A DNA stretch of 64,000 nucleotides from Bacteroidota bacterium (GTDB lineage: Bacteria > Bacteroidota > Ignavibacteria > Kapaibacteriales > UBA2268), in assembly GCA_022707965.1 (NCBI GenBank), contig JAKIZO010000005.1:687-64686 (forward strand), written 5' to 3'. A program made the position numbers and the translations under genes. Under the pieces are notes generated by a model. It ran no database searches. It saw only the letters and a list, made by a program, of their open reading frames with translations, and was not told where the DNA came from. Position 1 is the first letter of the stretch, and each line of letters starts with the position of its first letter. Below are positions 8,307 to 63,572 of the stretch, one piece after another.

Positions 8307-8588
8307 ATGGAAATTCAGACTGTTGAACAAGAAGTAACTAAATCGCGTAAGAGAATTCTTACCGGCAAAGTAGTCTCCGATAAACCGGAAAAATCTATCG
8401 TTGTGATGGTTGAACGCCAGGTTGCTCATCCGATTTATAAAAAGTATTTTAAACGCTCGAAAAAATATATGGCACACGACGAAAATAACGAAGCGCACGT
8501 AGGCGATACTGTCCGCATTATCGAAGAGCGCCCACTGAGCGCTCGCAAAAGATGGAGATTACTTAAAATTGTTGAGCGTGCTAAGTAA
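8307..8588 (+). CDS. rpsQ: 30S ribosomal protein S17
   Basis: [17 protein letters not shown]...HPIYKKY...Y.AHDE.N.A..GD.V.I.E.RPLS. Confidence 0.96.
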
Positions 8589-8605
8589 TTAAAGGGTTAT
8601 AAACT

Positions 8606-8974
8606 ATGATTCAAGAAGAAACAAATTTGACGGTAGCTGATAACTCCGGTGCTAAAAAAATTCGCTGCATTAGAGTGCTCGGCGGCCACGGCAAAAAATA
8701 CGCAACAGTTGGCGACCTCGTCGTCGTCTCAGTTAAAGCCGCTATCCCCGGTGCTCCCGTCAAAAAAGGTAGCATTCATAAAGCTGTTATCGTTCGCACT
8801 GCTAAAGAAATTCGTCGTAAAGATGGCTCCTGCATCAGATTCGACGACAACGCAGCCGTTATCCTGAACGATAAAGGCGAACCTCGTGGAACTCGTATTT
8901 TCGGTCCTGTTGCCCGCGAGCTTCGTGAAAAAAATTATATGAAAATTGTTTCACTCGCTCCGGAAGTATTATAA
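8606..8974 (+). CDS. rplN: 50S ribosomal protein L14
   Basis: [23 protein letters not shown]. Confidence 0.98.
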
Positions 8975-8984
8975 GGTGACTACT

Positions 8985-9308
8985 ATGGCTAAACTTAAAA
9001 TTAAAAAAGGCGATACCGTTCAAGTTATTGCTGGCGACGACAAAGGTAAAATCGGCAGAGTGTTAGAAGTTTACCCAAAAACTATGAAAATTTTGGTCGA
9101 ACAAGTTAACGTTCATAAAAAACATACTCGCCCTAATCAGCAATATCCTAACGGCGGTATTATCTCTAAAGAATTGCCTATTCATTACTCTAACGTAATG
9201 ATTCTCGATTCCGAGAAAAAGCCAACTCGTATTGGTATCCGCCACGAAATTAAAGGCGGTCGCAAAGAAACTATTCGCTTTGCTCGTACTAATAATAAAG
9301 ATTTATAA
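8985..9308 (+). CDS. rplX: 50S ribosomal protein L24
   Basis: MAKLKIKKGDTVQVIAGDDKGK.G.V (KOW motif). ATG 8985 is preferred over the upstream start at 8946, which overlaps rplN. Confidence 0.95.
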   Translation: MAKLKIKKGDTVQVIAGDDKGKIGRVLEVYPKTMKILVEQVNVHKKHTRPNQQYPNGGIISKELPIHYSNVMILDSEKKPTRIGIRHEIKGGRKETIRFARTNNKDL

Positions 9309-9329
9309 TATTAGGCAGTAATAGATATT

Positions 9330-9992
9330 ATGGCAACTAAAACAACTAAAAAACCAGCAGCACCTGCAAAACCCGGCGTAAGCAAACGCGGAGACTTCCC
9401 CTTCGAAGGTAAACGCCTCGAAGAGGTTCAGGATAAAGAAATCCCAACTCCACGTCTGTTTACCTTCTACAAGGAACACGTAGTGCCTGCATTGATGAAG
9501 AAATTTAATTATAAGTCAATTATGCAGGTGCCTCGCCTCGAAAAAATTTGCCTCAATATGGGCATCGGCGACGCTGTTCAGGACTTGAAACTTTTGCAAA
9601 GTGCTATGAACGAACTCGAACTTATCTCAGGTCAACGCCCTGTGGTAAGACGAGCTAAAAAAGCTATCTCGAACTTCAAACTACGCGCCGGTATGCCAAT
9701 CGGTGTTTCCGTTACGCTAAGAAGAGCAAGAATGTATGAATTCTTAGACAGATTCATCAATATTGCTGCTCCACGTATTCGCGACTTCCGTGGTTTTAGC
9801 GAAAAAGGATTCGATGGACGCGGAAATTACTCGCTCGGTATCAAAGAGCAAATCATTTTCCCCGAAATCGACGTAGATAAAGTTTCGAAAATCGGTGGGC
9901 TCGATATTACTTTCGTAATGAGCTCCCACTCGGACGAAGAGTCGTATGCATTACTACAAGAATTTGGTTTTCCATTCCGTAAAAAAGATTGA
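9330..9992 (+). CDS. rplE: 50S ribosomal protein L5 with about 40-aa N-terminal extension
   Basis: The L5 core begins around [32 protein letters not shown]. It is preceded by a K/P/A-rich segment with no internal Met. Confidence 0.93.
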
Positions 9993-10001
9993 GAATGAAC
10001 T

Positions 10002-10271
10002 ATGTCTAAAGTAAGTGTAAAAATGCGCAACGAAAAAAGACGCAGATTGGTAGAAAAATATCAAGCTAAACGCGAGGCTCTCAAAGCAGCCGGCGATTGG
10101 GAAGGCTTGCAAAAATTGCCACGCAATAGCTCGCCTACACGTCTGCGCAACCGTTGTTCCATCAGCGGACGTGGTCGCGGCGTCTACCGTAAATTCGGTC
10201 TCTGCCGCAATATGTTCCGTCAATTAGCTCTGGAAGGAAAAATTCCAGGTATTCGTAAGGCCAGTTGGTGA
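10002..10271 (+). CDS. rpsN: 30S ribosomal protein S14 (89 aa, long form)
   Basis: [38 protein letters not shown]. Confidence 0.95.
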
Positions 10272-10290
10272 TATTAATATGGTAGGAATT

Positions 10291-10686
10291 ATGCCAGTAA
10301 CAGATCAAATATCTGATTTCTTAACACGCATTCGTAATGCCGGCCGCGCTGGTCATAAAACAGTTACAGCACCGGCTTCGAAGCTGAAAATCGCTATAGC
10401 CCGTATCCTCAAAGATCAAGGCTTTATAGCAGACTATGCAATTATCGAGGACAAAGTACAAAATCAAATAAAAGTTACTTTGAAGTATTATAATCGCGAA
10501 CCTGCTATTCGCGAAATGAAACGTATCAGCAAGCCCGGACGCCGTATCTACGTGTCGGTCGATAATTTGCCACGCATCAAAAACGGTCTCGGTATTGCTA
10601 TTATCTCTACATCCAAAGGTGTTCTCACCGATAAAGATGCGAAAAAATTTAACGTTGGCGGCGAATTTATTTGTTCAATTTGGTAA
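10291..10686 (+). CDS. rpsH: 30S ribosomal protein S8
   Basis: MPVTDQISDFLTRIRNA. ATG 10291 is preferred over 10279. Confidence 0.96.
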   Translation: MPVTDQISDFLTRIRNAGRAGHKTVTAPASKLKIAIARILKDQGFIADYAIIEDKVQNQIKVTLKYYNREPAIREMKRISKPGRRIYVSVDNLPRIKNGLGIAIISTSKGVLTDKDAKKFNVGGEFICSIW

Positions 10687-12900: not shown

Positions 12901-14242
12901 CTTTGTTAATACTATAAAGAATATTTTCAAAATCGAAGAACTTCGCCAAAGAATTCTCTATACTCTGGGTATTTTGATTATTGTCCGGTTGGGTGCTCAC
13001 ATCACCCTCCCGGGCATCGATGTTCACGCCCTCGCTATTTCGAACCAGGACGCTGCATCGAATACCCTATTCGGTCTCTTCGATTTGTTCGTCGGTGGTG
13101 CGTTCTCCAACGCAGCTATTTTTGCTTTGGGTATTATGCCCTACATTACTTCTTCGATTATCTTCCAGCTCGCGGGGGTTGTCATCCCTGAAATTCAAAA
13201 AATGCAAAGGGAAGGCGAAGAAGGTCGACGCAAGATTAATCAATACACCCGACTTGGCACTGTTGTCATCTCCGCTCTCCAAGGCTGGGGATTAAGCATC
13301 AAACTTGCTTACCAGCAAACTGCCGGAGGAGTCCCGGTTGTCCCGGATAGTGGTTTTCTCTTTACTATTTCGACAATATTCTTACTTACTGCTGGCACCG
13401 TCTTTATGATGTGGCTCGGCGAGCAAATTACCGAACGCGGTATCGGCAACGGTATCTCGCTTATCATCTTCATTGGTATTATCGCTCGTCTGCCTGCCTC
13501 ACTCTGGCAAGAATGGTTGCTCATTCAAGCAGGTTCAAGGCACTGGCTCGTTGAGCTTGTTGTTATTACTCTGCTCGTTTTCATTATTGCCGCCGTTGTG
13601 CTGGTTACGCAAGGCGCTCGCAGAATACCTGTTCAGTATGCTAAACGTCAGGTCGGTCGCAAAGTGTATGGCGGAACAACTCAGTATATACCACTTCGTG
13701 TAAATACTGCGGGCGTGATGCCGATTATCTTTGCTCAGGCTCTTATGTTTATTCCTAATACCATACTTAGCTTTTTCCCTGAAAGTAAATTTATTATTAC
13801 ATTAGCTCAACTTTTCCATTATGATTCGTTCGTCTACGCAATTCTCTATTTCACTTTGATTGTTCTTTTCACTTACTTCTATACTGCAATTATCTTCAAC
13901 CCGAAAGATATTGCAGATAATATGAAAAAACAAGGTGGATTTATTCCTGGAATTCGTCCTGGACAACATACAGTTGAATATATCGATTCAATCTTGACAA
14001 GAATAACTCTTCCTGGCTCGATTTTCCTCGGATTAGTTGCAATTTTGCCTACTTTTGTTACTAACATTTTCAATATAAGTATGGGGTTCGCACAATTCTT
14101 TGGCGGTACTTCCTTGCTTATTGTTGTGGGCGTTGCTCTCGACACCTTGCAACAAATCGAATCGCACTTGCTAATGCGCCATTACGACGGATTTATGAAG
14201 AGCGGTAGAATTAGAGGAAGAGTTGGAGCAGGCGGTTTCTAA
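12893..14242 (+). CDS. secY: Preprotein translocase subunit SecY
   Basis: 449 aa, multi-TM, with ELRQRILYTLG...RLG..I.LPGI at the N-terminus and GIGNGISLIIF. Its position after rplO fits. Confidence 0.97.
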   Translation: MANFVNTIKNIFKIEELRQRILYTLGILIIVRLGAHITLPGIDVHALAISNQDAASNTLFGLFDLFVGGAFSNAAIFALGIMPYITSSIIFQLAGVVIPEIQKMQREGEEGRRKINQYTRLGTVVISALQGWGLSIKLAYQQTAGGVPVVPDSGFLFTISTIFLLTAGTVFMMWLGEQITERGIGNGISLIIFIGIIARLPASLWQEWLLIQAGSRHWLVELVVITLLVFIIAAVVLVTQGARRIPVQYAKRQVGRKVYGGTTQYIPLRVNTAGVMPIIFAQALMFIPNTILSFFPESKFIITLAQLFHYDSFVYAILYFTLIVLFTYFYTAIIFNPKDIADNMKKQGGFIPGIRPGQHTVEYIDSILTRITLPGSIFLGLVAILPTFVTNIFNISMGFAQFFGGTSLLIVVGVALDTLQQIESHLLMRHYDGFMKSGRIRGRVGAGGF

Positions 14243-14244
14243 CA

Positions 14245-15063
14245 ATGAATAGAAAAATCAGCAACAATTATCAGGTGAGAGTTAAAATTAACACCAAAGA
14301 CGAAATTAGCAAAATTGAAAAAGCTTGCAGGGTTGTTGCTGATACACTTAGTACTTTGAAAAATTATGTGAAAGTCGGGGTTACAACAAAAGAGCTCGAT
14401 GAAATTGCAGAAGATTGTATCCGCTCTCGTAATGCCCGCCCCGCTTTCAAAGGTTATCAGCCGGATAAAAGCCTGATGCCTTTTCCCGGCACCATTTGCG
14501 CCTCTGTCAATGAAGTGGTCGTCCACGGTATTCCGAGCGACTACAAATTAAAGGATGGCGATATTATCTCGATAGATTGCGGTGCCGAACTCGATGGCTT
14601 CTATGGCGATAGTGCTGTTACCTATCCAGTTGGTAAAATAGAGCCTTCGGTTGAACGTCTATTACAAGTTACCGAAGAAGCTCTATTTCTTGGTATCGAT
14701 AATGCTATCGAAGGGCGAAAGGTCTATGACATATCAAAAGCTATCCAGCAGCATTGCGAAGAGAACGGATATTCTCTTACTCGCGAGCTGGTCGGACACG
14801 GAATTGGGCGCCGACTGCACGAAGAGCCACCCATTCCGAACTTTGTGCCACCTTTGCTCTATCGAAATCGATACCCGAACGTTAAACTATTGAGCGGTAT
14901 GGCTCTGGCTATCGAACCGATGGTTCATATGGGTCGCAAAGAAATTGCGACTGCAAGCGATGGCTGGACAATAATTACAGCCGACAACAAGCCAGCAGCT
15001 CATTTTGAACATACTGTAATTGTTGATAAAAATAAAGCAATTATACTAACTTTGAGAGATTAA
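14245..15063 (+). CDS. map: Type I methionine aminopeptidase
   Basis: VVHGIP....[10 protein letters not shown]......GFYGDSA.T..VG, HGIGR..HEEP and the metal-ligand pattern. Confidence 0.95.
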
Positions 15064-32600: not shown

Positions 32601-32730
32601 AATTAAGTAGAATTAGTTTTACAAAATTTCGTATTTAGTTTAAACTAAATAACTTACGTTATTTTGTTTACAACTACAAATTTAATTAAAAAAATCATTC
32701 TACCAAAAAATATATAAATTTTCTTTTAGA

Positions 32731-33066
32731 AGAATGTCTATGCTATTGCTTAATAATAAACCTTCCGAAGGTTTTAAACCTTCGTAAGGTTCTAAGCTTG
32801 GGAAATTAGAAAGAGCCTGATAAAACGAAATTCAATTTCACTGCTTTTGTATTGCACAGATAGGAATGTCAATGCTACCGCTGTATAATAAAAAACCTTC
32901 GGAAGGTTTCAAACCTTCCGAAGGTTCAAAGTTTGGTAAATTAGCAACAATCTGATAAAACGAAATTCAATTTCACTGCTTTTGTATTGCACAGACAAGA
33001 ATGTCTATGCTACCGCTTATTAATAAACCTTCCGAAGGTGTCCGCCCTTCCGAAGGTTCTAATACT
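32731..33066. repeat. Tandem repeat, about 2.5 copies of a 132-135 bp unit, each with a pair of AACCTTCSGAAGGTT palindromes
   Basis: Unit anchors GAATGTC lie at 32732, 32864 and 32999. A 44-nt block is identical at 32817-32860 and 32952-32995. Palindromes lie at 32761-71, 32779-89, 32896-906, 32914-24, 33028-38 and 33046-56. Confidence 0.9.
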
Positions 33067-53548: not shown

Positions 53549-54340
53549 ATGAGAATTTCTATCGCTTTCAAGCCCGAACGGAATATTTTCCTGCTTCCAA
53601 CAAATTATAACTATGAATTAAGCTCTATGATTTATTATATTATGTCTTTGAGTGGTCCAAAGTTTTCCAATTGGTTGCACTCGCGTGGCTTTAGTCTTGA
53701 TGGTGGGAAAAGATTTAAATTCTTCAATTTTTCCAGGTTATTTTTCCACGAAAAAGAAATACAGGGGGACGTAATCAAAGCTTCGGGCAATTTTAAGCTC
53801 ATATTTAGCACACCTATCGACGAAAGCGTCCTCACAAACTTTGTTTCTGGAATTATGGAAAATTCCGAAGGATTATACCTTGGCAATAAACAAGTTGGCA
53901 CAAAGGTAAAGATTGTTAGAGTTAATATTCTTCCTTATCCTCGTTTTGAGCATAATACTAAATACATTATGCTTTCGCCAACAGTTGCTTCCATAAAAAA
54001 CAATCAGGATAGAGTAATATATCTCGACCCGTCCGACAGCAGAACAATCGAAGTCCTGCGAAACAATATTGTGAGAAAATACGAAGCCATTTATAGAGAA
54101 AAGTGCCCTTATGCAATAGATATTGCTTTCGATGAAGAATATTTGTCGAAAAAAGGCGACGTCTCGGAGGTAATGAGATTAATCAATGTGAAAGTAGGCA
54201 AAGCAAATTCTGCAAAAATAAAAGGATTTCTTTTGCCACTTTATATTCAAAGTGATGAAACTATCCACCGACTGATTTACGATGCCGGACTCGGCGAGAA
54301 AAATTCGCTTGGCTTCGGTATGCTCGAAGTTGCAAAATAA
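53549..54340 (+). CDS. cas6: CRISPR-associated endoribonuclease Cas6
   Basis: 263 aa. A RAMP fold is indicated by FKFFNFSRL and the C-terminal glycine-rich loop GLGEKNSLGFGMLEV. It lies divergent to a csm operon. Confidence 0.85.
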   Translation: MRISIAFKPERNIFLLPTNYNYELSSMIYYIMSLSGPKFSNWLHSRGFSLDGGKRFKFFNFSRLFFHEKEIQGDVIKASGNFKLIFSTPIDESVLTNFVSGIMENSEGLYLGNKQVGTKVKIVRVNILPYPRFEHNTKYIMLSPTVASIKNNQDRVIYLDPSDSRTIEVLRNNIVRKYEAIYREKCPYAIDIAFDEEYLSKKGDVSEVMRLINVKVGKANSAKIKGFLLPLYIQSDETIHRLIYDAGLGEKNSLGFGMLEVAK

Positions 54341-54344
54341 GCAA

Positions 54345-55619
54345 CTATCTAAATTTTGCGTTTAATAAATTATCGTGAAAAAAGTTTACCAGATTTCTTA
54401 TACTATCTTTGTTCAGTTCGAATTTCCCTTTCCTATCCAGATGGGCTATGTTATTACGTATTTTTTTCAGTTCAATGAGCTTCTCTTTAAAATTGTTAAT
54501 TGGTTCAACAAGCAAATCATCGTTCTTTTCTAATAATTTTGAGAGTTTTTCGTTTGCCTCAACCTTGTCTTTTATCTTCTTCTGAGTGCAAAAAGCCTCG
54601 ATAACTGCTTCGTAAGCGGCAATTACTGCAAGTGAGTAATTGTGGTTTCGCTGTTGCTGGCGTGCGACTTTCAGTATTTTCTCAACGTTTGTTTTCCCAT
54701 TGTTTATCTCGTCTGCAAACTCTTTGATTATTGGCTTAACGTAAAGAAATGGTTTGGGTGGTTCTTTTACAGCGTCAATCTTTTGGGAAATTTCTTTCGA
54801 AAGCTCGATGATTTTAGTAAAAGAATTCACGCTGAACGCAGACGAAAAGTCTTCTATTAACTTACTTAATTCTTCCGTGCTTTTGTACCTTTTCAGTAGC
54901 TGAGCAATTTGCTCGGGGTCTTTGTATTTGCGTAATACTTCGGCGGCAGTTACCCATTTATTCAGCTCTGTGAATAGATTAAACTCAAAAATTGGTGCTC
55001 GTCCGTTGTGTTTCGGGTCGTTCATTAGCTCTAATGCACCATAGTAGATGCTTCCCAACTTTACTTTTCCATTCGTAATCGCATTAAAATAGAATAAGCT
55101 GAACAGAAAGAAAAATGGTTGATACCTCAATCCGTGTGTAATATCGAACGATACGGTAGAACTTTTTATATCGAGATGCAAAATTTTATTGAAAATCGAC
55201 CACAGCTGTTCTACGTTTTCCCCAATTTCAATAATGTGGCAATAAGTGGGAATTTCGAAGTAATCTGTCAATCGACGGTTCAATGCTTCAATTACTTCCG
55301 GCTTTTCGCCTATGCTGCTGTCTTCCACTGATTTCCATATCAATGAGAATTCTTTGAGAAGATGTTCTTTGTCTGTTTCTTCCGGGATAGTGTGAACAAA
55401 CAAAGTTTCCCACATCGACGACGAAGTCCCAAAAATATGCACTTCCTGAAATTTCTTTGGGCTAAGCTTTATGATTGCTTCGCCGACAAATGGAGATTCG
55501 ACGTATTCATCGCTTTTGCTCGATGGCAGATAATATTTCGTTCGCCTATAATTGCGGCTGTCTATGCTTCGCAAAACATTCTGCCCTGTCCCAAGAATTA
55601 GAAATAGAGTGTTTTTCAA
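54345..55619 (-). CDS. csx1: Csx1-family CARF-HEPN protein (TM1812-like CARF N-terminus)
   Basis: The N-terminus FLILGTGQN...Y..T.YYL resembles a TM1812-type CARF. The C-terminal HEPN motif is RNNIAH (Rx4H, codons 54441-54458). It is the last gene of the csm operon. Confidence 0.75.
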   Translation of the reverse strand: MKNTLFLILGTGQNVLRSIDSRNYRRTKYYLPSSKSDEYVESPFVGEAIIKLSPKKFQEVHIFGTSSSMWETLFVHTIPEETDKEHLLKEFSLIWKSVEDSSIGEKPEVIEALNRRLTDYFEIPTYCHIIEIGENVEQLWSIFNKILHLDIKSSTVSFDITHGLRYQPFFFLFSLFYFNAITNGKVKLGSIYYGALELMNDPKHNGRAPIFEFNLFTELNKWVTAAEVLRKYKDPEQIAQLLKRYKSTEELSKLIEDFSSAFSVNSFTKIIELSKEISQKIDAVKEPPKPFLYVKPIIKEFADEINNGKTNVEKILKVARQQQRNHNYSLAVIAAYEAVIEAFCTQKKIKDKVEANEKLSKLLEKNDDLLVEPINNFKEKLIELKKIRNNIAHLDRKGKFELNKDSIRNLVNFFHDNLLNAKFR

Positions 55620-56563
55620 GTTAGATGCTCCATAAATATTTCAACTAATTCATCAGGAATTACTATATTCTTTATGTTACTTCTGTCTAAGTCTGTCAAT
55701 ACAAATTCCCTTCTTTCAGCAGAAATAGTTTTGTTCTCTCCGTTCTGAACTGTGTGGATTAATGCGAGTGTTTCAAGCTCGCATAGTTCGAACGTTCCAT
55801 TCCACTTCTTTGCTTCGTCTTTGTCGCGAGAAACTATTATTCCGCTATTGCAATTCGAAAAAATTGTCAAATTTTTCCTGTCTAAACGACCGCCAACATC
55901 AACCAGCACAACTTTTTTCGATTTTGCCGTATTTTCAATGAAACGCGCCATTTTACTTGCAAATTCATCAGTAAACTCGCCTTTATAGCGGAACACCTTG
56001 CCTTGATTTTCCGGAATTTCTCCGAACCAATCGCCTTCTCCATCAGGGCAAGCGCGAATGATAAAAAAATCCTCATAAAATCTTTCGGGCTTCATTGCTC
56101 TGATTTTTTCTCTCAGTGCCTGGATAAACACGCTTTTCCCACTATGTGGCGGACCACCGACGACTGTTATTAATTTTTCTAACTTTTGCTTTTCCTTGCG
56201 TTTCTTGCTTGATTGATTTGTTTCGTGTTTAATATATTGAGTGATTTCCTCAACCGAGGCAATTGTGTCGCCCACGCTTTTCCCATTTGCAACGTGATTT
56301 TCTACAATTATCGCTCCAATCCTTGGGTCGAATGTAGCAACCCACGCAAAAGGGTGAAGTTCGTGCACCAGAAAAGCATAAAGCCATATCGGCGCTTTCC
56401 CGTTGATAATCACTCCCAGATCGGTACGCAATTCTTGTGGCAACTTGACGCTTTTGAGCAAAGCAGGTTCTATCACTCCGTCTTCGGAAATCTTAATATC
56501 CAATATTTGATAGTTTTTTTCAGTACTGACAACATTAAACTTGATTTTACCACAATTGTTCAA
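55616..56563 (-). CDS. csx3: Csx3 (Crn3-type ring nuclease) domain fused to a P-loop NTPase domain
   Basis: Residues about 1-100 read GVIINGKAPIWLYAFLVHELHPFAWVATFDPRIGAIIVENH, the Csx3 family signature. Walker A GGPPHSGKS lies at 56132-56158. A Walker-B-like KVVLVDVGGR is present. Confidence 0.75.
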   Translation of the reverse strand: MNNCGKIKFNVVSTEKNYQILDIKISEDGVIEPALLKSVKLPQELRTDLGVIINGKAPIWLYAFLVHELHPFAWVATFDPRIGAIIVENHVANGKSVGDTIASVEEITQYIKHETNQSSKKRKEKQKLEKLITVVGGPPHSGKSVFIQALREKIRAMKPERFYEDFFIIRACPDGEGDWFGEIPENQGKVFRYKGEFTDEFASKMARFIENTAKSKKVVLVDVGGRLDRKNLTIFSNCNSGIIVSRDKDEAKKWNGTFELCELETLALIHTVQNGENKTISAERREFVLTDLDRSNIKNIVIPDELVEIFMEHLT

Positions 56564-57905
56564 TTTTTATCCATCCTAAATGTTCATAATAATTATTTAT
56601 TTCAGACACTTTGCGAGAAGTGGGGAATTTATGCAAATCTACCTTTTTTGGCTTTGCATTTTTCCCAGGTGTTTGACCTATTCTAAATAAATCAAAAATT
56701 TCCTCGTATATTTTCTTAATTTCACCATTGTTCTGTGAAATTTTATCAAGTATGTTAAACAAAACAGTTTTGCTGTGGAAACCGCCACCCCATCCGATTT
56801 TTGTGGCAATATCTTTATCGCCAATCTTTGGGAGAATTAATTTCTTTGAATTTTTAGGATATCTATCGTAAAATCCAACATCAAGTTTTTCAATTCCATC
56901 AAGATAGTTGTACAAATAATCCATAATAATATTCATTACTTTTTTGATTATTTCTTCATTATTAAGTTGCTTCAAATCGTCATCAGTTATGCTAAACAAT
57001 TTCTTCAATTTTCTATAATACTTCTGTTGATTCTTGATTGATTTCTCGACTGCTCGCAAAAATTCAATATCGAAATCTATAGTAAAATCGAACGAAACGC
57101 CTTTCTTAATCACTTCGAGTGCATTTAGCTGCCCTTGTGCAGTGCCTTTTGCAGTCAAAGTTTTTGGCAAAACCAGTTCGCAAACTTCCTCGGGCAATCG
57201 GCAATTTGTGTCGCTCACACGAACAAACTTCATCAAATCGTATTTTGCATCATATTCTTTTGTTGAGTAGTTGAATATTTCATTAATTTCATCTTCGAAA
57301 AAATTTTTTGCGTCCTTTTTCTTTTTATTATCTTGACTTTTACATTCTCTCAATTCTGATTTTAATTTATCAAGGATTTCGATTTTTTCCGAAGCAAATT
57401 CTTTGTCTGTGAATACTTTATAAAAATACTCATTCAATATTGCTGTCCGAATTATACCTTTAATAGTTGTGCCGGGGATATAAATTTTATTATCTGCTGT
57501 TTTAATGTGTGAATTGACAAGCTTTGAAACGTTTGGTTCGTTTGTAGGCATTTTGTATCTAATAAATTTACCTTCTTTTATCTTCTGGCGAATTGTATGT
57601 TCTAAGTCCTTTCTATTGAGATGATTGGAGATAAAATCGAAAATATTGAGCTTGTATGTTCCCTTCTTTTTCAAATTGGAACTTGATTGATTATTGAGTT
57701 TTTCATCTTTTGTTTCGACCCATTCCGATATTTTATGTATTGATTGCGGAACTTCCTTGATTACGTAGCTCAATATTTCGTCAGTTTTAAGCCGATAAAA
57801 GTAATTTCCTTGAATTAAATACTCGAAGCTATCTATTTGTTCTCCACTGGAAATTGCAATTGGAGTAAGTGTTGTAATTCTAAACTTATTGCTTTCTGTG
57901 TTCAT
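56547..57905 (-). CDS. csm5: Type III-A RAMP protein Csm5
   Basis: FRITTLTPIAISSGE, IYIPGTTIKGIIRTAIL and the C-terminal KIGWGGGFHSKT. It sits after csm4. Confidence 0.8.
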   Translation of the reverse strand: MNTESNKFRITTLTPIAISSGEQIDSFEYLIQGNYFYRLKTDEILSYVIKEVPQSIHKISEWVETKDEKLNNQSSSNLKKKGTYKLNIFDFISNHLNRKDLEHTIRQKIKEGKFIRYKMPTNEPNVSKLVNSHIKTADNKIYIPGTTIKGIIRTAILNEYFYKVFTDKEFASEKIEILDKLKSELRECKSQDNKKKKDAKNFFEDEINEIFNYSTKEYDAKYDLMKFVRVSDTNCRLPEEVCELVLPKTLTAKGTAQGQLNALEVIKKGVSFDFTIDFDIEFLRAVEKSIKNQQKYYRKLKKLFSITDDDLKQLNNEEIIKKVMNIIMDYLYNYLDGIEKLDVGFYDRYPKNSKKLILPKIGDKDIATKIGWGGGFHSKTVLFNILDKISQNNGEIKKIYEEIFDLFRIGQTPGKNAKPKKVDLHKFPTSRKVSEINNYYEHLGWIKIEQLW

Positions 57906-57909
57906 TTTA

Positions 57910-58866
57910 TTATCCCCGAATTTTTATTTTAATTGGGAAGGACAGACCATTGAATTTTATTGAAATATTATCTGCTGTCGCAACTTCTTTTATGCTTCCG
58001 TAGTGTTTCTTCCCGTTAATAATTGGGAAGACCGAACCCGCAGCAAAGTAGCTTACCGGTTTCTTGCGGAATACATTCCACGAATAATTGTTGCTGAATA
58101 TTTTTCCTTCTTTCGTTTCGAGCTCGTAGAACAATAATTTTGTGTGTTCCTGATAATACTTTATCTCGTCAGCAGTCGGGTAATAGCACGAAAGATTAAT
58201 AAACGCATTAGCATCTGATGGTTCTTCCAGTACAATTTCGTCGACTTCGTAACTAAATTGCCCTCGACCAGTGGAGGCATCGCGCCCAAGCCCGTAATGA
58301 TTTAAAAAATTGAACACGGGCTCTACAAGCGAGAAATCACCTTCAAATAGGAAATACAGCCCACCATTATCTATAAATAAATCATCTGTATGATAAAAAT
58401 GTTCTTCCTCTGATGAATTTGTCAGCCGATTTATTTGAACGTGCGGAACGGAAACTTCCCTAATTTGCGGTTGAGCGAGCTTCTCCTTCGAGTTTACAAA
58501 TATCTCGAAAATATCTTGAATGGTAATTTCTCCCTTAATCAATCTGCTGAAAGTTTCCAAATCCAAATATCTCAACGACTTAAACTCTTTTGTTTTGCTG
58601 TATTCTTTTATTGTTTCAATTTCTTTTTCATCAGTTGGCAACTTCGGTTTTGGAAAATAAATTCGCTTGCGGCTGTCTATCTTGTTGAATACAAAGCAAT
58701 TAGAGAAAAGAAATGGGGGCGAACCCGCTTCGAAGCTCTCGACAACCGAGCGAGTGAATTCTTCGCCTTTCAAATATCTCATCACCGTGAGAGTTATGCC
58801 GAAAAGAAAGTCGGCATCATATATTCTTGAGAAAGACGTTTTTGGATATAAATATACTATCTTCAT
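57910..58866 (-). CDS. csm4: Type III-A RAMP protein Csm4
   Basis: 318 aa with the C-terminal HYGLGRDASTGRGQF glycine-rich loop. It lies between csm3 and csm5. Confidence 0.8.
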   Translation of the reverse strand: MKIVYLYPKTSFSRIYDADFLFGITLTVMRYLKGEEFTRSVVESFEAGSPPFLFSNCFVFNKIDSRKRIYFPKPKLPTDEKEIETIKEYSKTKEFKSLRYLDLETFSRLIKGEITIQDIFEIFVNSKEKLAQPQIREVSVPHVQINRLTNSSEEEHFYHTDDLFIDNGGLYFLFEGDFSLVEPVFNFLNHYGLGRDASTGRGQFSYEVDEIVLEEPSDANAFINLSCYYPTADEIKYYQEHTKLLFYELETKEGKIFSNNYSWNVFRKKPVSYFAAGSVFPIINGKKHYGSIKEVATADNISIKFNGLSFPIKIKIRG

Positions 58867-58867
58867 T

Positions 58868-59704
58868 TTACAAATTTTTGAATTTGTTCATAATTCCCGC
58901 TAATTTCTCATCAGTAAAATCAGATAAACGCAAATATTTATCTTTATCAAATGTTACATCGATATCTTTAAGCGAATTCTTAAATCGCTCATCTGGTTTC
59001 AGATAATCTGCTCTTGTCAGAACGTATGGTTCTTCGAGTTTGAAACTTATTTTGCCATAACCGCGCGATCCACTTCCGCCAAGTGTGTTGTGTTCGAGTA
59101 GTTTCATCGATAATAATAAATCTTTGAAGAAATCAATATCTTGTTTTTCGCAATTGTCCAGCTTATAGACGCCAAAAATCATCTCAAAATTGAAGCACGA
59201 ACCTTTTACAACACGTTCGAGAAATCTTGGATTGGCAGCGGAAGTGATTTTATTAATCGTGTTCTCCGGCTTGTATTCCGTATACATCAATTCTGAATCA
59301 AGGTTTTTCCACATCATTACTGTTTCCTGGTCGGGGTGAGCATCGCGGACAATCAATCGAGTTGGTCCAATTGCTTCTTCTTTGGGCGCTACTTCGGCGG
59401 GCACACCAAATATTCGCTGCAATGATGAATTGCTATCGAAATTTTGCAATGATGAATTGCTATCGAAATTTTCCTTCTCAGGAGGGTCTATGTCCGCTTT
59501 ACCAAGATGATACGCAAGCAGCGTCCTCATCTTTCCTTTAAGCGATGAACCTGGAATATAAGGATACTGCGTAAATGGGTCGCGAATTACGGGCGAATCG
59601 ACACCGCCAATTTCAAGTTTATCTTTCGAACCGCCTATGTGCAGTCCCGTTAGGCATTCTATTTTGCCTCGAAGAATAATATTTCCTAAAAATTCTATTT
59701 TCAT
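58868..59704 (-). CDS. csm3: Type III-A backbone RNase subunit Csm3 (with internal 9-aa tandem duplication)
   Basis: LTGLHIGGSKDKLEIGGVDSPVIRDP....PYIPGSSLKGKMRTLL is canonical Csm3 and includes the Asp-containing active-site segment. AAGGAG lies upstream. Confidence 0.9.
   Translation of the reverse strand: MKIEFLGNIILRGKIECLTGLHIGGSKDKLEIGGVDSPVIRDPFTQYPYIPGSSLKGKMRTLLAYHLGKADIDPPEKENFDSNSSLQNFDSNSSLQRIFGVPAEVAPKEEAIGPTRLIVRDAHPDQETVMMWKNLDSELMYTEYKPENTINKITSAANPRFLERVVKGSCFNFEMIFGVYKLDNCEKQDIDFFKDLLLSMKLLEHNTLGGSGSRGYGKISFKLEEPYVLTRADYLKPDERFKNSLKDIDVTFDKDKYLRLSDFTDEKLAGIMNKFKNL
59418..59471 (-). repeat. Perfect 27-bp x2 in-frame tandem duplication inside csm3
   Basis: TGCAATGATGAATTGCTATCGAAATTT at 59418-59444 repeats exactly at 59445-59471 and encodes NFDSNSSLQ twice. 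Confidence 0.97.
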
Positions 59705-59716
59705 AACTACTCCTTA

Positions 59717-60148
59717 TTAATCTTTTCCACCATAATATTTATGATATGCTACTATTGCCTCTACAAATTCGAAAAAGTTTTCATACGCTTTTTCTTTGTT
59801 ATTTGATTTATACACTTTGTCTATCACTTCAAACATTAACTCTTTGAAGTCTTCAACTTCCCGGTTTCTCCCTTTTGCGTAAGCCAACTTTGGTTTGATA
59901 AGAATTAAACTTGCGTCGAGTTCCTGGAATTCCATTTTGGTAATTTTCCTCTGTTTGAACTCGTTTCTCAAAGTATTGAAATGAGAGAAAAAGTTACGAA
60001 TTTGGTTCGTTTTAATTTTTTGCGAAAAATCGTGTCCTTTCATATCCGCAACTTCATTAATTCTTTCAGCAGGAACCAGAGCGAAATCCTTTTCAGTGAA
60101 GACTTCGTTATGATTTCCTTTTTTGCTGTCGTTAAAGTTATTTCCCAT
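59717..60148 (-). CDS. csm2: Type III-A small subunit Csm2
   Basis: 143 aa, helical, lying between cas10 and csm3. It overlaps the cas10 3' end by 11 nt and has AGAGGT upstream. Confidence 0.75.
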   Translation of the reverse strand: MGNNFNDSKKGNHNEVFTEKDFALVPAERINEVADMKGHDFSQKIKTNQIRNFFSHFNTLRNEFKQRKITKMEFQELDASLILIKPKLAYAKGRNREVEDFKELMFEVIDKVYKSNNKEKAYENFFEFVEAIVAYHKYYGGKD

Positions 60149-62555
60149 TTTTACCTCTATTTTTGAATACTACATAATTTCCAATAATCGGGAATGTGCT
60201 ATACCAGCGTTGCCTTTCGAGCTTTTCGCTTTTCAAAAATTGTCGCAGAAGTGTATTTTTGATTTCTCTAATTTCTTTGTCATCTTTATTGTCTTTTGAA
60301 TTAATCGCGTGTTCCGACAATTCGCGGCGTGCGAATAGATAATGAAGTTTTGCAGTAAGATTGTATATTTTTTCTGTGTTCAGCTCGCCTTTTTTGTCGA
60401 AAGTCTGCCTCACATTCGATAGCAGGCGATAAACAAAACTCGACGTTATCCCTTTCGAAGATGACTTGTTTTTGTCTATTGCCTCGTTCAGGCTTTTGGC
60501 GAACTTAATTTTGTCTTCCAGTTCTTTCCAATAGACAACCGTTTCGAACACCGAAATTTTATCTTTTTTGCCTTTTTCAGTGTCTTCCCTGTGTATTGCA
60601 GTTCTCTTTGCTCTTGATTCTTCTGCACCCGAAATCAATGCGGATTTAGCAATAGGGTATGTGGGCTTTGTAATGGCAATTCCTGCCGATAGAGTAATAT
60701 TTGGATTTTTTGTTGTGTATTCAGCGAAGTTTTCTTTCACTTTTTTTGCAAATTCAATGATATTTACCCACGAACCGACTGCAAAAAGGTCGTCCCCGCC
60801 CGAATATGTAATGTATATATCGTGCTCTTTCGCAAGCAAATCCACATCACGAGTGAAGAACATATCCATCTGCCGCGAAAGCGTAGCAAGCCGCGATATA
60901 GAATATCTCTTTTTCTCCTCTTTATTCTCCATTTCTTGTTTTTGCGTCCATTTTAGCCCCTTCTTGAAAATATACCCAAGATTGTCCACATCCATACGCA
61001 GAACCCCAAGCAACGGGTAGTTCTTTGACTTCAACTCGGATATTTCGCTAAACTCCAACAACTCGTAATTATTTTTCTGATTTCTTGGCGCATTTCTTGC
61101 AATAAACTTAAAAGACAAAGCTATCGGAATATCGCAGAATTCCCTTGTAATATCGGCATTTTGTGCTATTTCAGTGTCCTTAATTGAATAAATTGTTGCA
61201 AATTCAGGTTTTTGATTATATATACTTTTGATAAACTCTTTACAATGCTCTTTGCTGTCCGCCAGATACCAGTAAGTGCAAAAATGAGGCAATTTAACCA
61301 CGCGTCTGCTGAATTTTTCCTCAAAACCAATTTCCTTTGTTGATACAATTTCCACGATATACTTTGTGTGCGGTATCGCACCTCCAATTTCATCAAAACT
61401 TATTCCCTTTATTTCACTCAGCTGTTCTTCGACTGTTTCGGGGAAGATACGTTCAAGAATACTCAAAGATTTTCTTGATTTTTTCTGCCTCAACTCACTG
61501 CCCAATTTTCTCTGAACTTCATCGAACTCAACAAAAATTTCGTTTATTGACGCTTCCACCCAGGCAAGAACAACTTGCAAAGAACTTCGAAATACTTCGT
61601 ATAGCGACAGATTTATTCTTTTTTCCAGTTCTTCTAATTTCTTCCGATTTTCAGTATTTGCAGGAATTAATATCTCAAATCCGCCACCGCTATTATATAC
61701 AATGTTCCCATCGTATAGATTGAATTCTCTAATAATATAGTTGCCAATTGTATCAGCAAGTAATTTCACAAAGAAAGACCTACCCCGAAGCTTTTTCGAA
61801 GCTTTGTCGGTGTCCTTTATCTCGGAATAAATGAAATTCTGTATTCCCGAAATGTCGCCTTTAAGCAATATCACTTTATCAATGCTTTCCTCTGCTTGCG
61901 ACATACATACCGATGCAGCTGCAACCATTCGGCTATGGTCGAATAGCGAAATATCGGGGTTTGTCAGATAACTTGCTGAACTCACAGTAGAAGTGTATTT
62001 CCACAATAGCGAAAATAATGTGCTAAGCATAGCTTGCTTGTGGTCTGTGCAGCCATTCTTGTATATTGTCTCTAATTCTTCTGTAAATTCTTCCCAACTT
62101 TCTTTATGCAAATCAATCATTTCCTCTTCATCTGGTTGCCAGCTCTTTTCGGTAACATTCCTTTTGTGCACAGGTCTTGTTATCTCAATATTTAGGCGTT
62201 TTAGCGGCTTGGGCTCTAAATAATACACTTCGCTGGGGGCATCGCCAATACCAATATCAATATACTTGAAAATAGACATCAGAGGACGTCGAGTTTCTTT
62301 GCTCTCTTGTTTTATGCGTTCGCTTGCAGCAGCGTGGTCAGCTTCGCGAACAAAAGTATTGCCTCTTACAAGAGCTTTTAGTATTTCATTACCTTTTGGT
62401 TTGAAGCATTCAAACTTGGTTGTCAGATATTCGCTTGCGAACCTTTCGCCAAGCATTTCGTGGTCGACGCCTCTTTGGGTTTTTTGAGCTCGAAAGGCGA
62501 ACTTCCCTATATCGTGAAGCAGTCCGCCAAGATAAGTAATATCAGTTTGGTTCAT
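60138..62555 (-). CDS. cas10: Cas10/Csm1 with intact HD nuclease and GGDD cyclase motifs
   Basis: The N-terminal LGGLLHDIGKF has its HD at 62511-62516. The cyclase motif YSGGDDLFAVGSW has GGDD at 60789-60800. 805 aa. Confidence 0.92.
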   Translation of the reverse strand: MNQTDITYLGGLLHDIGKFAFRAQKTQRGVDHEMLGERFASEYLTTKFECFKPKGNEILKALVRGNTFVREADHAAASERIKQESKETRRPLMSIFKYIDIGIGDAPSEVYYLEPKPLKRLNIEITRPVHKRNVTEKSWQPDEEEMIDLHKESWEEFTEELETIYKNGCTDHKQAMLSTLFSLLWKYTSTVSSASYLTNPDISLFDHSRMVAAASVCMSQAEESIDKVILLKGDISGIQNFIYSEIKDTDKASKKLRGRSFFVKLLADTIGNYIIREFNLYDGNIVYNSGGGFEILIPANTENRKKLEELEKRINLSLYEVFRSSLQVVLAWVEASINEIFVEFDEVQRKLGSELRQKKSRKSLSILERIFPETVEEQLSEIKGISFDEIGGAIPHTKYIVEIVSTKEIGFEEKFSRRVVKLPHFCTYWYLADSKEHCKEFIKSIYNQKPEFATIYSIKDTEIAQNADITREFCDIPIALSFKFIARNAPRNQKNNYELLEFSEISELKSKNYPLLGVLRMDVDNLGYIFKKGLKWTQKQEMENKEEKKRYSISRLATLSRQMDMFFTRDVDLLAKEHDIYITYSGGDDLFAVGSWVNIIEFAKKVKENFAEYTTKNPNITLSAGIAITKPTYPIAKSALISGAEESRAKRTAIHREDTEKGKKDKISVFETVVYWKELEDKIKFAKSLNEAIDKNKSSSKGITSSFVYRLLSNVRQTFDKKGELNTEKIYNLTAKLHYLFARRELSEHAINSKDNKDDKEIREIKNTLLRQFLKSEKLERQRWYSTFPIIGNYVVFKNRGKNGK

Positions 62556-62558
62556 AAA

Positions 62559-63572
62559 TTATTTCACTATTTTTATTCTATTTTTACTTAATTTAATCCC
62601 GTATTTTTTGTCGGCGTAGCTTCCAAGAGTGCTAATAATATAGAAATCGCTCATTAATTCATTATCTAACGCTTGTGTGATTTGGTTTTTGATAACCGAA
62701 ATTGATTTTTGCAAGTTCTCGAAATTTAATTTCCCTTTCTCGAACAATCCCGACTGTGCTCTCTGCAAATGTCCTTGCGATGGTGTGTATTTGCAGTATA
62801 TTTCCCATATTTCAGATAAATTCTTATCGGAAAACGATTTGCCACCACGTAGAAATTTTCCCGCTTTCTTTGCAAAAAAGAAATATACTGCAAAAGGCAA
62901 CGGCTGCATTTGCACCACTTTGTTACCTATTGATATTCGCCTTGTGTTCGGATAAATTTCGAGTATTGGCAATTCGATACGGCTATCGAGTTCTTCCTGT
63001 GCGGTTTGTATTAAGTCGTTGACCTCTAAATTGCCACTTTTACCCGGATTAAACTTCAATTTTATAAAAGGCTTTTCGAAAAAAACAATCTCATTTGCTT
63101 CTTCATCGCTTTCGGGATAAAATTGCTTGCTTGCGGCAAATTTTTCGCTTGCAACAACGTGATACATCTTATCTGCGTCGCCACCGAACACCGATAGGGC
63201 AATTGCCAAATCAACGCTCATCGTTTTTCTGCCACCGGAAATTAAGCAGTGCAATGTGTTGCCTCGAAGCTTCTCGGATTTTACTACGTCGAATATTAAC
63301 TTTGTCAAAGAACTGCTCGATTTTTTGTTGTATAATTCGTCATCTGCTGATAAATACTCAACACTCCATTCTTTTTTCAAATTGTAATAACCCTGGAATT
63401 CCTTTAATTTCAACGAAAGCGTTTTCTCTATGCTTCCCCGGCAATCGTTCGTTGTTATGATAATTATTCTTTGAATTTCCTGTCGCTGCTTGAACTCTAA
63501 AAAATATAACGCCTCCGTCAATATTTGCGGACTTTTGCCCACCAAACATATTAATACGTTATCTACATTCAT
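62559..63572 (-). CDS. NE0113/Csx14-like CARF-domain protein with unassigned C-terminal domain (about 150 aa)
   Basis: The N-terminus ICLVGKSPQILTEALYFL and ISGGRKTMS match the NE0113-type CARF signature as I recall it. It lies 3 nt upstream of cas10 on the same strand. Confidence 0.6.
   Translation of the reverse strand: MNVDNVLICLVGKSPQILTEALYFLEFKQRQEIQRIIIITTNDCRGSIEKTLSLKLKEFQGYYNLKKEWSVEYLSADDELYNKKSSSSLTKLIFDVVKSEKLRGNTLHCLISGGRKTMSVDLAIALSVFGGDADKMYHVVASEKFAASKQFYPESDEEANEIVFFEKPFIKLKFNPGKSGNLEVNDLIQTAQEELDSRIELPILEIYPNTRRISIGNKVVQMQPLPFAVYFFFAKKAGKFLRGGKSFSDKNLSEIWEIYCKYTPSQGHLQRAQSGLFEKGKLNFENLQKSISVIKNQITQALDNELMSDFYIISTLGSYADKKYGIKLSKNRIKIVK

Follow-up and report, generated by a model that had tools for sequence, protein, structure and literature searches.

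What does a nucleoside triphosphatase (NTPase) domain do when it is joined, within one polypeptide, to a ring nuclease? This question is raised by a gene which sits inside a type III-A CRISPR operon of an Ignavibacteria genome, on a stretch of 64,000 nucleotides (nt) of contig JAKIZO010000005.1 (this whole stretch being referred to as the window), and whose product (the fusion) carries a Csx3/Crn3 domain followed by a P-loop NTPase domain. Ring nucleases decide the outcome of a type III response, being either recovery or dormancy or death, and Csx3/Crn3 is unusual in that it is active only as dimers stacked around cyclic tetra-adenylate (cA4). The fusion is a previously uncatalogued copy in a known, functionally uncharacterised family, named Csx3-AAA. 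The current work adds to the description of this family a model-based assignment of the P-loop domain to the SIMIBI class and not to AAA+, the finding that Csx3 is its only recurrent partner, the invariance of the NTPase half, and the presence of Csx3/P-loop pairs outside CRISPR loci. That Csx3 is the exclusive partner, that nuclease residues are lost where the NTPase motifs are kept, and that pairs exist outside CRISPR suggest, when taken together, that the NTPase is the conserved business end of the protein; if true, nucleotide-energy sensing or timing would be added to cyclic oligoadenylate (cOA) signalling. The gene and the parts of its product are the following (aa, amino acids; pLDDT, predicted local distance difference test):

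55616-56563, minus strand: csx3-P-loop fusion gene, 315 aa, TTG start and TGA stop (list of open reading frames with translation, PADLOC PDLC01045, AlphaFold2)
56234-56551, minus strand: Csx3/Crn3 ring-nuclease domain, aa 5-110 (Pfam, TIGRFAM, Foldseek)
56294-56365, minus strand: catalytic stretch HELHPFAWVATFDPRIGAIIVENH (alignment to AfCsx3)
56177-56233, minus strand: K/E-rich flexible linker SSKKRKEKQKLEK, aa 111-129 (pLDDT below 50 at aa 115-124)
55619-56176, minus strand: SIMIBI-like P-loop NTPase domain, aa 130-315 (PADLOC PDLC01515, E = 1.7e-41)
56132-56158, minus strand: Walker A motif GGPPHSGKS, with G137, S141, G142 and K143 invariant
56027-56056, minus strand: motif RACPDGEGDW, located after strand beta-2 (aa 166-171), with R170, D174, G175, E176 and G177 invariant or nearly so
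55886-55912, minus strand: Walker B/G3-type motif VVLVDVGGR, of the DxxG type, with D222, G224 and G225 invariant

The first-pass annotation of this DNA, which had been made from the letters alone, had placed an open reading frame at 55616-56563 without stating its strand and had described it as sharing 17 nt with csm5 and 4 nt with csx1. The frame is real and is located on the minus strand, and both overlaps are as claimed, the one with csm5 (56547-57905) recurring in locus L009 and the one with csx1 (54345-55619) consisting of TTGA, in which the TTG start of csx1 lies on the TGA stop of the fusion gene. The two neighbours had been named correctly, all of the quoted peptide strings (among them GVIINGKAPIWLYAFLVHELHPFAWVATFDPRIGAIIVENH) are present in the translation, and the coordinates given for Walker A are exact. 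Homologues, whose N-termini align at the equivalent residue, support the TTG start at 56563, and AlphaFold2 returned a full-length model of the fusion (as a monomer) with a pLDDT of 91.9 and a predicted template modelling score (pTM) of 0.86. The gene is 99% identical to a contig of Ignavibacteria bacterium metagenome-assembled genome SKW44 (L008), and the closest non-self relative of the full protein, out of 1,320 homologues in total, shows 54% identity.

Considering the N-terminal domain, which had been taken for Csx3 with conserved His and Asp positions, a hidden Markov model search returned the Pfam family Cas_csx3 (PF09620) at E = 3.8e-25 (88 bits, with a cut-off of 21) and TIGR02579, Crn3/Csx3, at E = 5.9e-25 (87.4 bits, with a cut-off of 55.4). 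Chains of AfCsx3 (A. fulgidus AF1864; PDB 3WZG and 6YUD) match this domain at E ~1e-17 and with 34-39% identity, and the N-terminal model has the same fold, aligning to 3wzg/6yud in Foldseek with a template modelling (TM) score (TMt) of 0.88-0.92 and a root-mean-square deviation of 1.2-1.5 A. In AfCsx3 the residues H57, H60 and H80 constitute the so-called H60 face, while D69 and R71 belong to the cA4-binding D69 face (PMC7371418). All five are present in the fusion, where H67, H70 and H90 are the equivalents of the H60-face residues, in that order, and D79 and R81 those of the D69-face residues. The domain is Crn3/Csx3 by sequence, fold and catalytic residues and, because these family and fold matches are accompanied by the residues of both half-sites, its predicted activity is that of a ring nuclease specific for cA4. 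For Csx3 to cleave cA4, two dimers must stack head-to-tail, which joins the H60 and D69 faces into one composite site; the enzyme behaves cooperatively, with turnover limited by complex assembly or product release, and the Mn2+-dependent reaction yields linear A2P with a free 5'-OH and a 3'-phosphate (PMC7371418). AfCsx3 shares with the fusion an association with a Csx1-type effector. It differs in being a protein of ~110 aa without an NTPase, the activity of which is set only by protein concentration and cA4-driven tetramerisation.

The C-terminal domain had been described by the first-pass annotation as a P-loop NTPase domain carrying a Walker A motif and a DxxG-like Walker B, a wording which is more accurate than the literature term 'AAA'. 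A domain-only model (pLDDT 91.2, again a monomer) was compared with the PDB, and its 50 best fold matches are all SIMIBI proteins, comprising the NG domains of SRP54/Ffh/FtsY as well as MeaB, MinD, ParF, BcsQ, Etk and Npa3 (E = 6e-6 to 1e-4, TM score TMq 0.5-0.62, 10-18% identity); the PDB matches of the full-length model agree with this result. With its closest structures (SRP54/Ffh-FtsY, MeaB/G3E, MinD/ParA/ParF, the GPN-loop protein Npa3 and the BY-kinase Etk) the domain shares the SIMIBI motif set, consisting of Walker A (GPPHSGKS), an acidic residue after strand beta-2 (D174) and an hhhhDxxG Walker B (D222-V-G-G225). By its position in the model and by analogy with these proteins, RACPDGEGDW would be a switch-I-like element. 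Unlike them, the domain is without NKxD, the signature lysine of deviant Walker motifs, an N domain or an insertion-box (IBD) domain, and it possesses its own invariant RAxxDGEG[DN]W motif and W254. In the P-loop alignment no NKxD motif is found and the equivalent strands end in a conserved Ser (S245, S271), which renders ATP plausible as substrate. No Pfam or NCBIfam family was found for the domain, either scanned alone or with all 76 members of alignment A2, the scans giving only sub-threshold catch-all models (DO-GTPase1, AAA_22, AAA_16, AAA_18, MMR_HSR1 and KTI12). Similarly, a profile search of PDB sequences revealed no solved structure of the domain and only weak Walker A/G3 matches (Der GTPase at E = 7.7e-5, NSF D2 and adenylate kinase 8). 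As judged from these models, the C-terminal domain is a SIMIBI-type P-loop NTPase.

The alternative that the domain is a genuine AAA+ ATPase, serving as a hexameric unfoldase or remodeller, draws on the literature name 'Csx3-AAA' and on the sub-threshold Pfam matches AAA_22, AAA_16 and AAA_18, and is effectively refuted. Neither the full-length nor the domain model has an AAA+ structure among its 50 best PDB matches, the Walker B is hhhhDxGG (VVLVDVGG) and not hhhhDE, and a helical lid is missing, the C-terminal third being beta-rich with three beta-strands and two short helices. Furthermore, every one of the Pfam AAA matches stays under its cut-off and extends over the Walker A region only, AAA_22 scoring E = 0.086 and 13.6 bits with a cut-off of 27. 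Since fold match, hhhhDE and lid are all lacking, the label 'AAA' used in the literature (PMC6546367, PMC8284326, PMC9676260, PMC12409355) is a misnomer.

The P-loop domain defines a small and discrete family, which gave 1,008 matches at a threshold of E <= 1e-3, and 345 at one of E <= 1e-30, when 1.84 billion representatives were searched exhaustively with its profile. Among 333 collected relatives, no domain other than Csx3 recurs as a partner of the P-loop domain; the architectures of these proteins (C denoting a Csx3 module and P the P-loop domain, from N- to C-terminus) are C-P in 161 cases, P alone in 99, P-C-C in 52, P-C in 18, C-C-P in two and C-P-C in one. Csx3 is also present in all ten long relatives scanned, and a stand-alone Csx3 gene is located directly upstream of five of the six stand-alone P-loop genes examined. 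This obligate partnership supports a physical and functional coupling of the two halves. Some of the larger relatives extend the P-loop-Csx3 core, with a NUDIX domain in P0274, with an N-terminal helix-turn-helix (HTH) and a C-terminal nucleotidyltransferase in P0280, and with 350-500 aa devoid of any domain assignment in P0277 and P0281.

At five loci with a split Csx3 and P-loop gene pair no cas gene was found within 6 kb. Four of these loci are metagenomic, one of them titled Candidatus Sungbacteria, and the pairs there are surrounded by housekeeping genes (gyrA, mreC/PBP2, rpoB and greA among others); the genomes are likely to be Patescibacteria-like, i.e. members of the candidate phyla radiation (CPR). 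The fifth belongs to the cyanobacterium Alkalinema, where the contig begins just upstream of the pair and signalling genes follow downstream. Split pairs, consisting of a Csx3 of ~100-108 aa and a P-loop protein of ~196-224 aa, were seen in L001-L006, L088, L089 and L090, mostly metagenomic loci and again without cas genes in the surrounding 6 kb, with Csx3 intact (HHDH) where this was checked (L001-L006), and several of them are located near TrmB-type regulators or near bpMoxR and VWA genes. In L005 a 658-aa protein (8541-10670), encoded a few kb downstream of the split pair, also fits the P-loop profile, its switch-I motif being degenerate (FADGEW), and its gene adjoins an HD_4 (RelA/SpoT-type HD) gene and bpMoxR.

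The two halves of the protein are conserved to an unequal extent. Of 207 Csx3-first fusions from a redundant sequence set, every one has K143, E176, G177, D222, G224 and W254, and 206 have D174, while the set of four Csx3 catalytic residues is complete in only 158 (76%) and reduced to two or fewer in 36 (17%). K143 is likewise kept in all 76 P-loop-only sequences. The Csx3-like modules of reversed fusions have mostly lost the histidines, yet the Asp of the cA4-binding face is often still there in the first module, and many degenerate Csx3 domains retain D79 of the D69 face. At two loci (L014, 9959-11237, and L029, 9599-10921) an intact stand-alone Csx3 gene is located directly upstream of a fusion with a degenerate Csx3 (IRAN and AEDG, respectively), an arrangement suggesting that one copy serves as nuclease and the other as sensor. 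The NTPase is, from this pattern of conservation, under strong selection.

Fusions of this kind had been said in the first-pass annotation to be known from comparative surveys, with no function assigned to the NTPase half, and this agrees with the literature. The PADLOC model PDLC01045, 'Csx3-AAA', matches aa 6-293 at E = 2.6e-56 (profile positions 14-263 of 286), and PDLC01515, a 183-position model for the P-loop part alone, matches as well. Shah et al. (2019) described Csx3-AAA as cluster 35, mainly from cyanobacteria, and the reverse order as cluster 67, and proposed that the ATPase is under allosteric control by cOA (PMC6546367). Athukoralage et al. called the P-loop domain 'kinase/transferase', reviews up to September 2025 list the NTPase half as being of 'unknown function', and no functional characterisation was found in literature on Csx3-AAA, slr7080, Crn3 with ATPase, or Csx3 since 2024. 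The Synechocystis member Slr7080 cofractionates with the CRISPR3 type III-Bv complex in Grad-seq (PMC8136920), and deletion of slr7080 left plasmid interference intact (PMC6546367).

The named members of this family (Shah cluster 35, also Csx3', CYB_0599, Slr7080, PDLC01045) have the same domain order as the fusion studied here and are, like it, tightly linked to type III operons. The latter stems from Ignavibacteria and is ~33-38% identical to cyanobacterial members, from which it differs in its longer, K/E-rich linker (the length of which varies among homologues in the alignment and which is almost missing in the cyanobacterial clade), in the Cys of RACPDGEG (the cyanobacterial form being RA[QHN]WDGEG) and in its position between csm5 and csx1 instead of directly upstream of cas10. 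AAA-Csx3 (Shah cluster 67, C3a67, PADLOC PDLC01059) contains the same P-loop family (E = 1.8e-34 to the C-terminal domain) in the reversed order and usually with two tandem Csx3-like modules (P-C-C) from which the catalytic histidines are mostly gone. A comparable concept, namely a module that both binds and degrades cOA and a second activity in one polypeptide that times signalling, is found in Csm6, Can2 and Csx1-Crn2; these join a CARF or Crn2 module to nucleases, whereas the partner here is an NTPase switch without a known substrate.

Relatives of the fusion are encoded in at least 318 species-level genomes spanning Ignavibacteria/Kapabacteria, Chlorobiota, Bacteroidota, Verrucomicrobia (Methylacidiphilum), Acidobacteriota, Myxococcota, Clostridia, Cloacimonadota and many cyanobacteria. 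Type III genes are present at 43 of 46 homologous genome loci (those with at least 5 kb on both flanks), and at 59 of 61 loci the homologue shares its strand with the closest cas gene. Ignavibacteria/Kapabacteria loci repeat the order CARF-cas10-csm2-3-4-5-[fusion]-csx1-(cas6), with csx1 and the fusion gene sometimes swapped, and in cyanobacteria the gene is located directly upstream of cas10, co-directional with it and sometimes overlapping. The first-pass annotation had read the gene overlaps as evidence of a core role; the embedding in the operon is indeed conserved, but intact plasmid interference after deletion of slr7080 does not agree with such a role, and from these two observations the gene is considered a tightly linked accessory or regulatory gene and not a core interference gene. 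No viral or anti-CRISPR homologue was found by tblastn in 50,697 phage records, and a BFVD fold search gave generic P-loop matches only (E at least 7e-4, TMq at most 0.51). A 1,089-aa relative in L030 was discarded as an artefact of stop-poor reading frames in a high-GC genome, the real gene being ~310 aa.

As SIMIBI NTPases work by nucleotide-dependent dimerisation, a testable idea presents itself, namely that the state of the bound nucleoside triphosphate (NTP) controls Csx3 stacking and, as a result, the lifetime of cA4. The reading that we tentatively place first, at somewhat less than an even chance, is that cA4-driven stacking of Csx3 is coupled to NTP-driven dimerisation of the P-loop domains, the whole forming a timed off-switch for Csx1. 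The Csx3 domain would bind cA4 made by the Cas10 encoded upstream and cut it to linear A2P, and removal of cA4 would silence the HEPN RNase Csx1 encoded immediately downstream. Binding of cA4 would pull the tethered P-loop domains together, whereupon NTP binding and hydrolysis would set the lifetime of the Csx3 stack, so that NTP state would time the removal of cA4 and hence the activity of Csx1. The fusion would in this manner be a nucleotide-timed, self-resetting off-switch for cA4 signalling, which would probably operate while docked on the Csm complex. The identities of the domains, their intact motifs, the place of the gene in the operon and the exclusive partnership of Csx3 and P-loop are shown by the data; the dimerisation of the P-loop domains, its coupling to Csx3 stacking and the direction of this coupling we infer.

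This proposal is supported by a complete local pathway, with a Cas10 containing GGDD and a Csx1 containing CARF and the R-x4-H motif of HEPN, and by the split active site, dimer-dimer stacking and cooperative kinetics of Csx3 (PMC7371418), all of which fit a coupling. Type III linkage, adjacency to cas10 and the cofractionation of Slr7080 link the protein to the effector complex. Several points weigh against it. P-loop dimerisation and its coupling to Csx3 stacking are conjectural, all models being of the monomer, and stand-alone Csx3 works without any NTPase. The P-loop family is, by its moderate fold similarity (TMq <=0.62, 10-18% identity), a SIMIBI-class outlier, and it lacks NKxD, the motif of guanine specificity, from which a base preference could have been read. 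The intact plasmid interference of the slr7080 deletion may be listed here too, although it is compatible with a regulator and uninformative. Finally, ~17% of Csx3-first and most reversed fusions are without the H60-face histidines while keeping all NTPase motifs; in these proteins the NTPase cannot gate a ring nuclease in cis, which argues for an NTPase output of its own.

This last point leads to the main alternative, a less likely one, in which the protein would be a cA4-activated NTPase effector or regulator. Csx3 would act as sensor, its nuclease activity only limiting its own signal (as in Csm6 and Can2), and the output of the SIMIBI NTPase would be exerted on a partner, most likely the Csm/Cmr complex, so as to stop cOA synthesis, recycle the complex or help in its assembly; mere burning of NTP is less likely. 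The asymmetric conservation described above, with the catalytic tetrad incomplete in many Csx3-first fusions and rare in P-C and P-C-C proteins, the retention of D79 and the intact Csx3 genes placed ahead of degenerate fusions in L014 and L029 all speak for it and, as far as sequence conservation allows, favour it for the family as a whole. The location of the cyanobacterial gene next to cas10, the cofractionation of Slr7080 and the proposal of allosteric control by Shah et al. point the same way. It has no known target, however, and the window already holds a conventional effector, Csx1, together with an intact nuclease site in the fusion; moreover, the split pairs far from cas genes imply that a Csm-directed output is not universal. 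Among the three ideas put forward in the first-pass annotation, we favour this one and nucleotide gating over kinase-like processing of the reaction products.

Such processing, by which the P-loop domain would act as a phosphotransferase or ligase on A2P or cA4, for example by a 5'-phosphorylation that prevents re-use or routes the product to degradation, is improbable. It would make use of the free 5'-OH of A2P (PMC7371418) and would accord with the 'kinase/transferase' label, with the phosphoryl-transfer enzymes of the SIMIBI class (Etk being one of the PDB fold matches), with CapA1B1 and E. coli CTP synthetase among the matches of the full-length model and CTP synthase among those from a viral library, with invariant residues outside the NTP motifs (R170, E176, W179 and W254) and with fusions to nucleotide-metabolising domains (P-C-NUDIX in P0274, HTH-P-C-nucleotidyltransferase in P0280). 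Yet the 50 best fold matches include no nucleoside/nucleotide or polynucleotide kinase, kinases (AK8, CMK, PSTK, Clp1/Grc3) match in sequence only weakly (E no better than 0.003) and over the Walker A region alone, nothing resembling a LID is seen, and the retention of the NTPase beside non-catalytic Csx3 modules would be left unexplained. Less probable still, and with only a slim chance, the P-loop domain would be a chaperone or tether in the manner of G3E metallochaperones or GPN/Mrp assembly NTPases, loading Mn2+ into Csx3 or assembling and anchoring the ring nuclease on Csm. In its favour, the best fold matches include MeaB (G3E) and GPN-loop GTPases, Csx3 depends on Mn2+, most members outside the cyanobacteria keep Cys172 and His140, and Slr7080 cofractionates with the complex; however, 75 of 207 fusions carry Q, N or H in place of Cys172, so that a Cys-based metal site is not general, neither a CxCC or GCHxH-type metal motif nor NKxD is present, and stand-alone Csx3 obtains Mn2+ without such a partner.

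Beyond the timed off-switch proposed for this operon, a broader claim, which we regard as possible but doubtful, concerns the family: the P-loop domain would represent an unrecognised SIMIBI-type family and obligate partner of Csx3, the two together forming an autonomous switch, not restricted to CRISPR, in which the binding of an oligoadenylate (cyclic or linear) to Csx3 governs NTP-dependent dimerisation and hydrolysis, or is governed by them. If true, it would be the first SIMIBI NTPase controlled by a cyclic oligonucleotide and, given the cas-free split pairs among housekeeping genes, would give 'ring nuclease' modules a second, non-CRISPR role.

The operon is encoded on the minus strand in the order CARF (NE0113 type), cas10/csm1, csm2, csm3, csm4, csm5, csx3-P-loop, csx1, and the genes around the fusion gene are the following:

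62559-63572, minus strand: CARF protein of the NE0113/Csx14/CARF5 type, 337 aa, first operon gene (PF09623, E = 1.7e-20)
60138-62555, minus strand: cas10/csm1, with HD and GGDD motifs, the cOA synthase
59717-60148, minus strand: csm2, type III-A effector complex
58868-59704, minus strand: csm3, type III-A effector complex
57910-58866, minus strand: csm4, type III-A effector complex
56547-57905, minus strand: csm5 (TIGR01899, E = 1.7e-25)
54345-55619, minus strand: csx1, CARF-HEPN RNase (TIGR02221, E = 3e-26; PADLOC CARF_HEPN, E = 1.5e-58)
53549-54340, plus strand, convergent with the operon: cas6 (TIGR01877, E = 1.7e-33)

Csx1, the HEPN motif of which is RNNIAH at aa 388, is likely to be the cA4-activated effector which the ring nuclease switches off. 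The CARF protein of the first gene matches PADLOC CARF5 at E = 1.4e-42 and barely exceeds the cut-off of TIGR02584, 'ring nuclease Csm6' (81.5 bits, with a cut-off of 80.65); it also has a weak Crn1 match and a C-terminal half of ~170 aa without family assignment, and may provide the locus with a further ring nuclease or with a regulator. Past cas6 come genes of housekeeping and sensing, namely lspA (directly after it) and those for a pseudouridine synthase, a histidine kinase, a response regulator, SurA and ppk1. Within the window no cas1 or cas2 was found, and no CRISPR array was detected by TRF, by a direct-repeat search or by a search with the repeat of a related Kapaibacterium locus. In the syntenic locus of Candidatus Kapaibacterium sp. 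Ch6 (L022) the genes are flanked by arrays (3-169 and 13274-14621) whose 30-nt repeat, GTTTTAATCGGACTATGTTAGGATTACGAC, does not occur in the window.

Two repeats of another kind were observed. The csm3 gene contains (59418-59471, minus strand) a perfect 27-nt tandem duplication, TGCAATGATGAATTGCTATCGAAATTT being present twice, by which the nine residues NFDSNSSLQ are repeated; it was not reported by the repeat scan of the 99%-identical contig L008, where the csm3 reading frame is ~21 nt shorter, and it seems either to have been inserted recently at strain level or to reflect a difference between assemblies. At 32730-33059 of the window an intergenic region consists of ~2.5 copies of a 135-nt unit with paired palindromes (AAACCTTCCGAAGGTTT) resembling hairpins or terminators.

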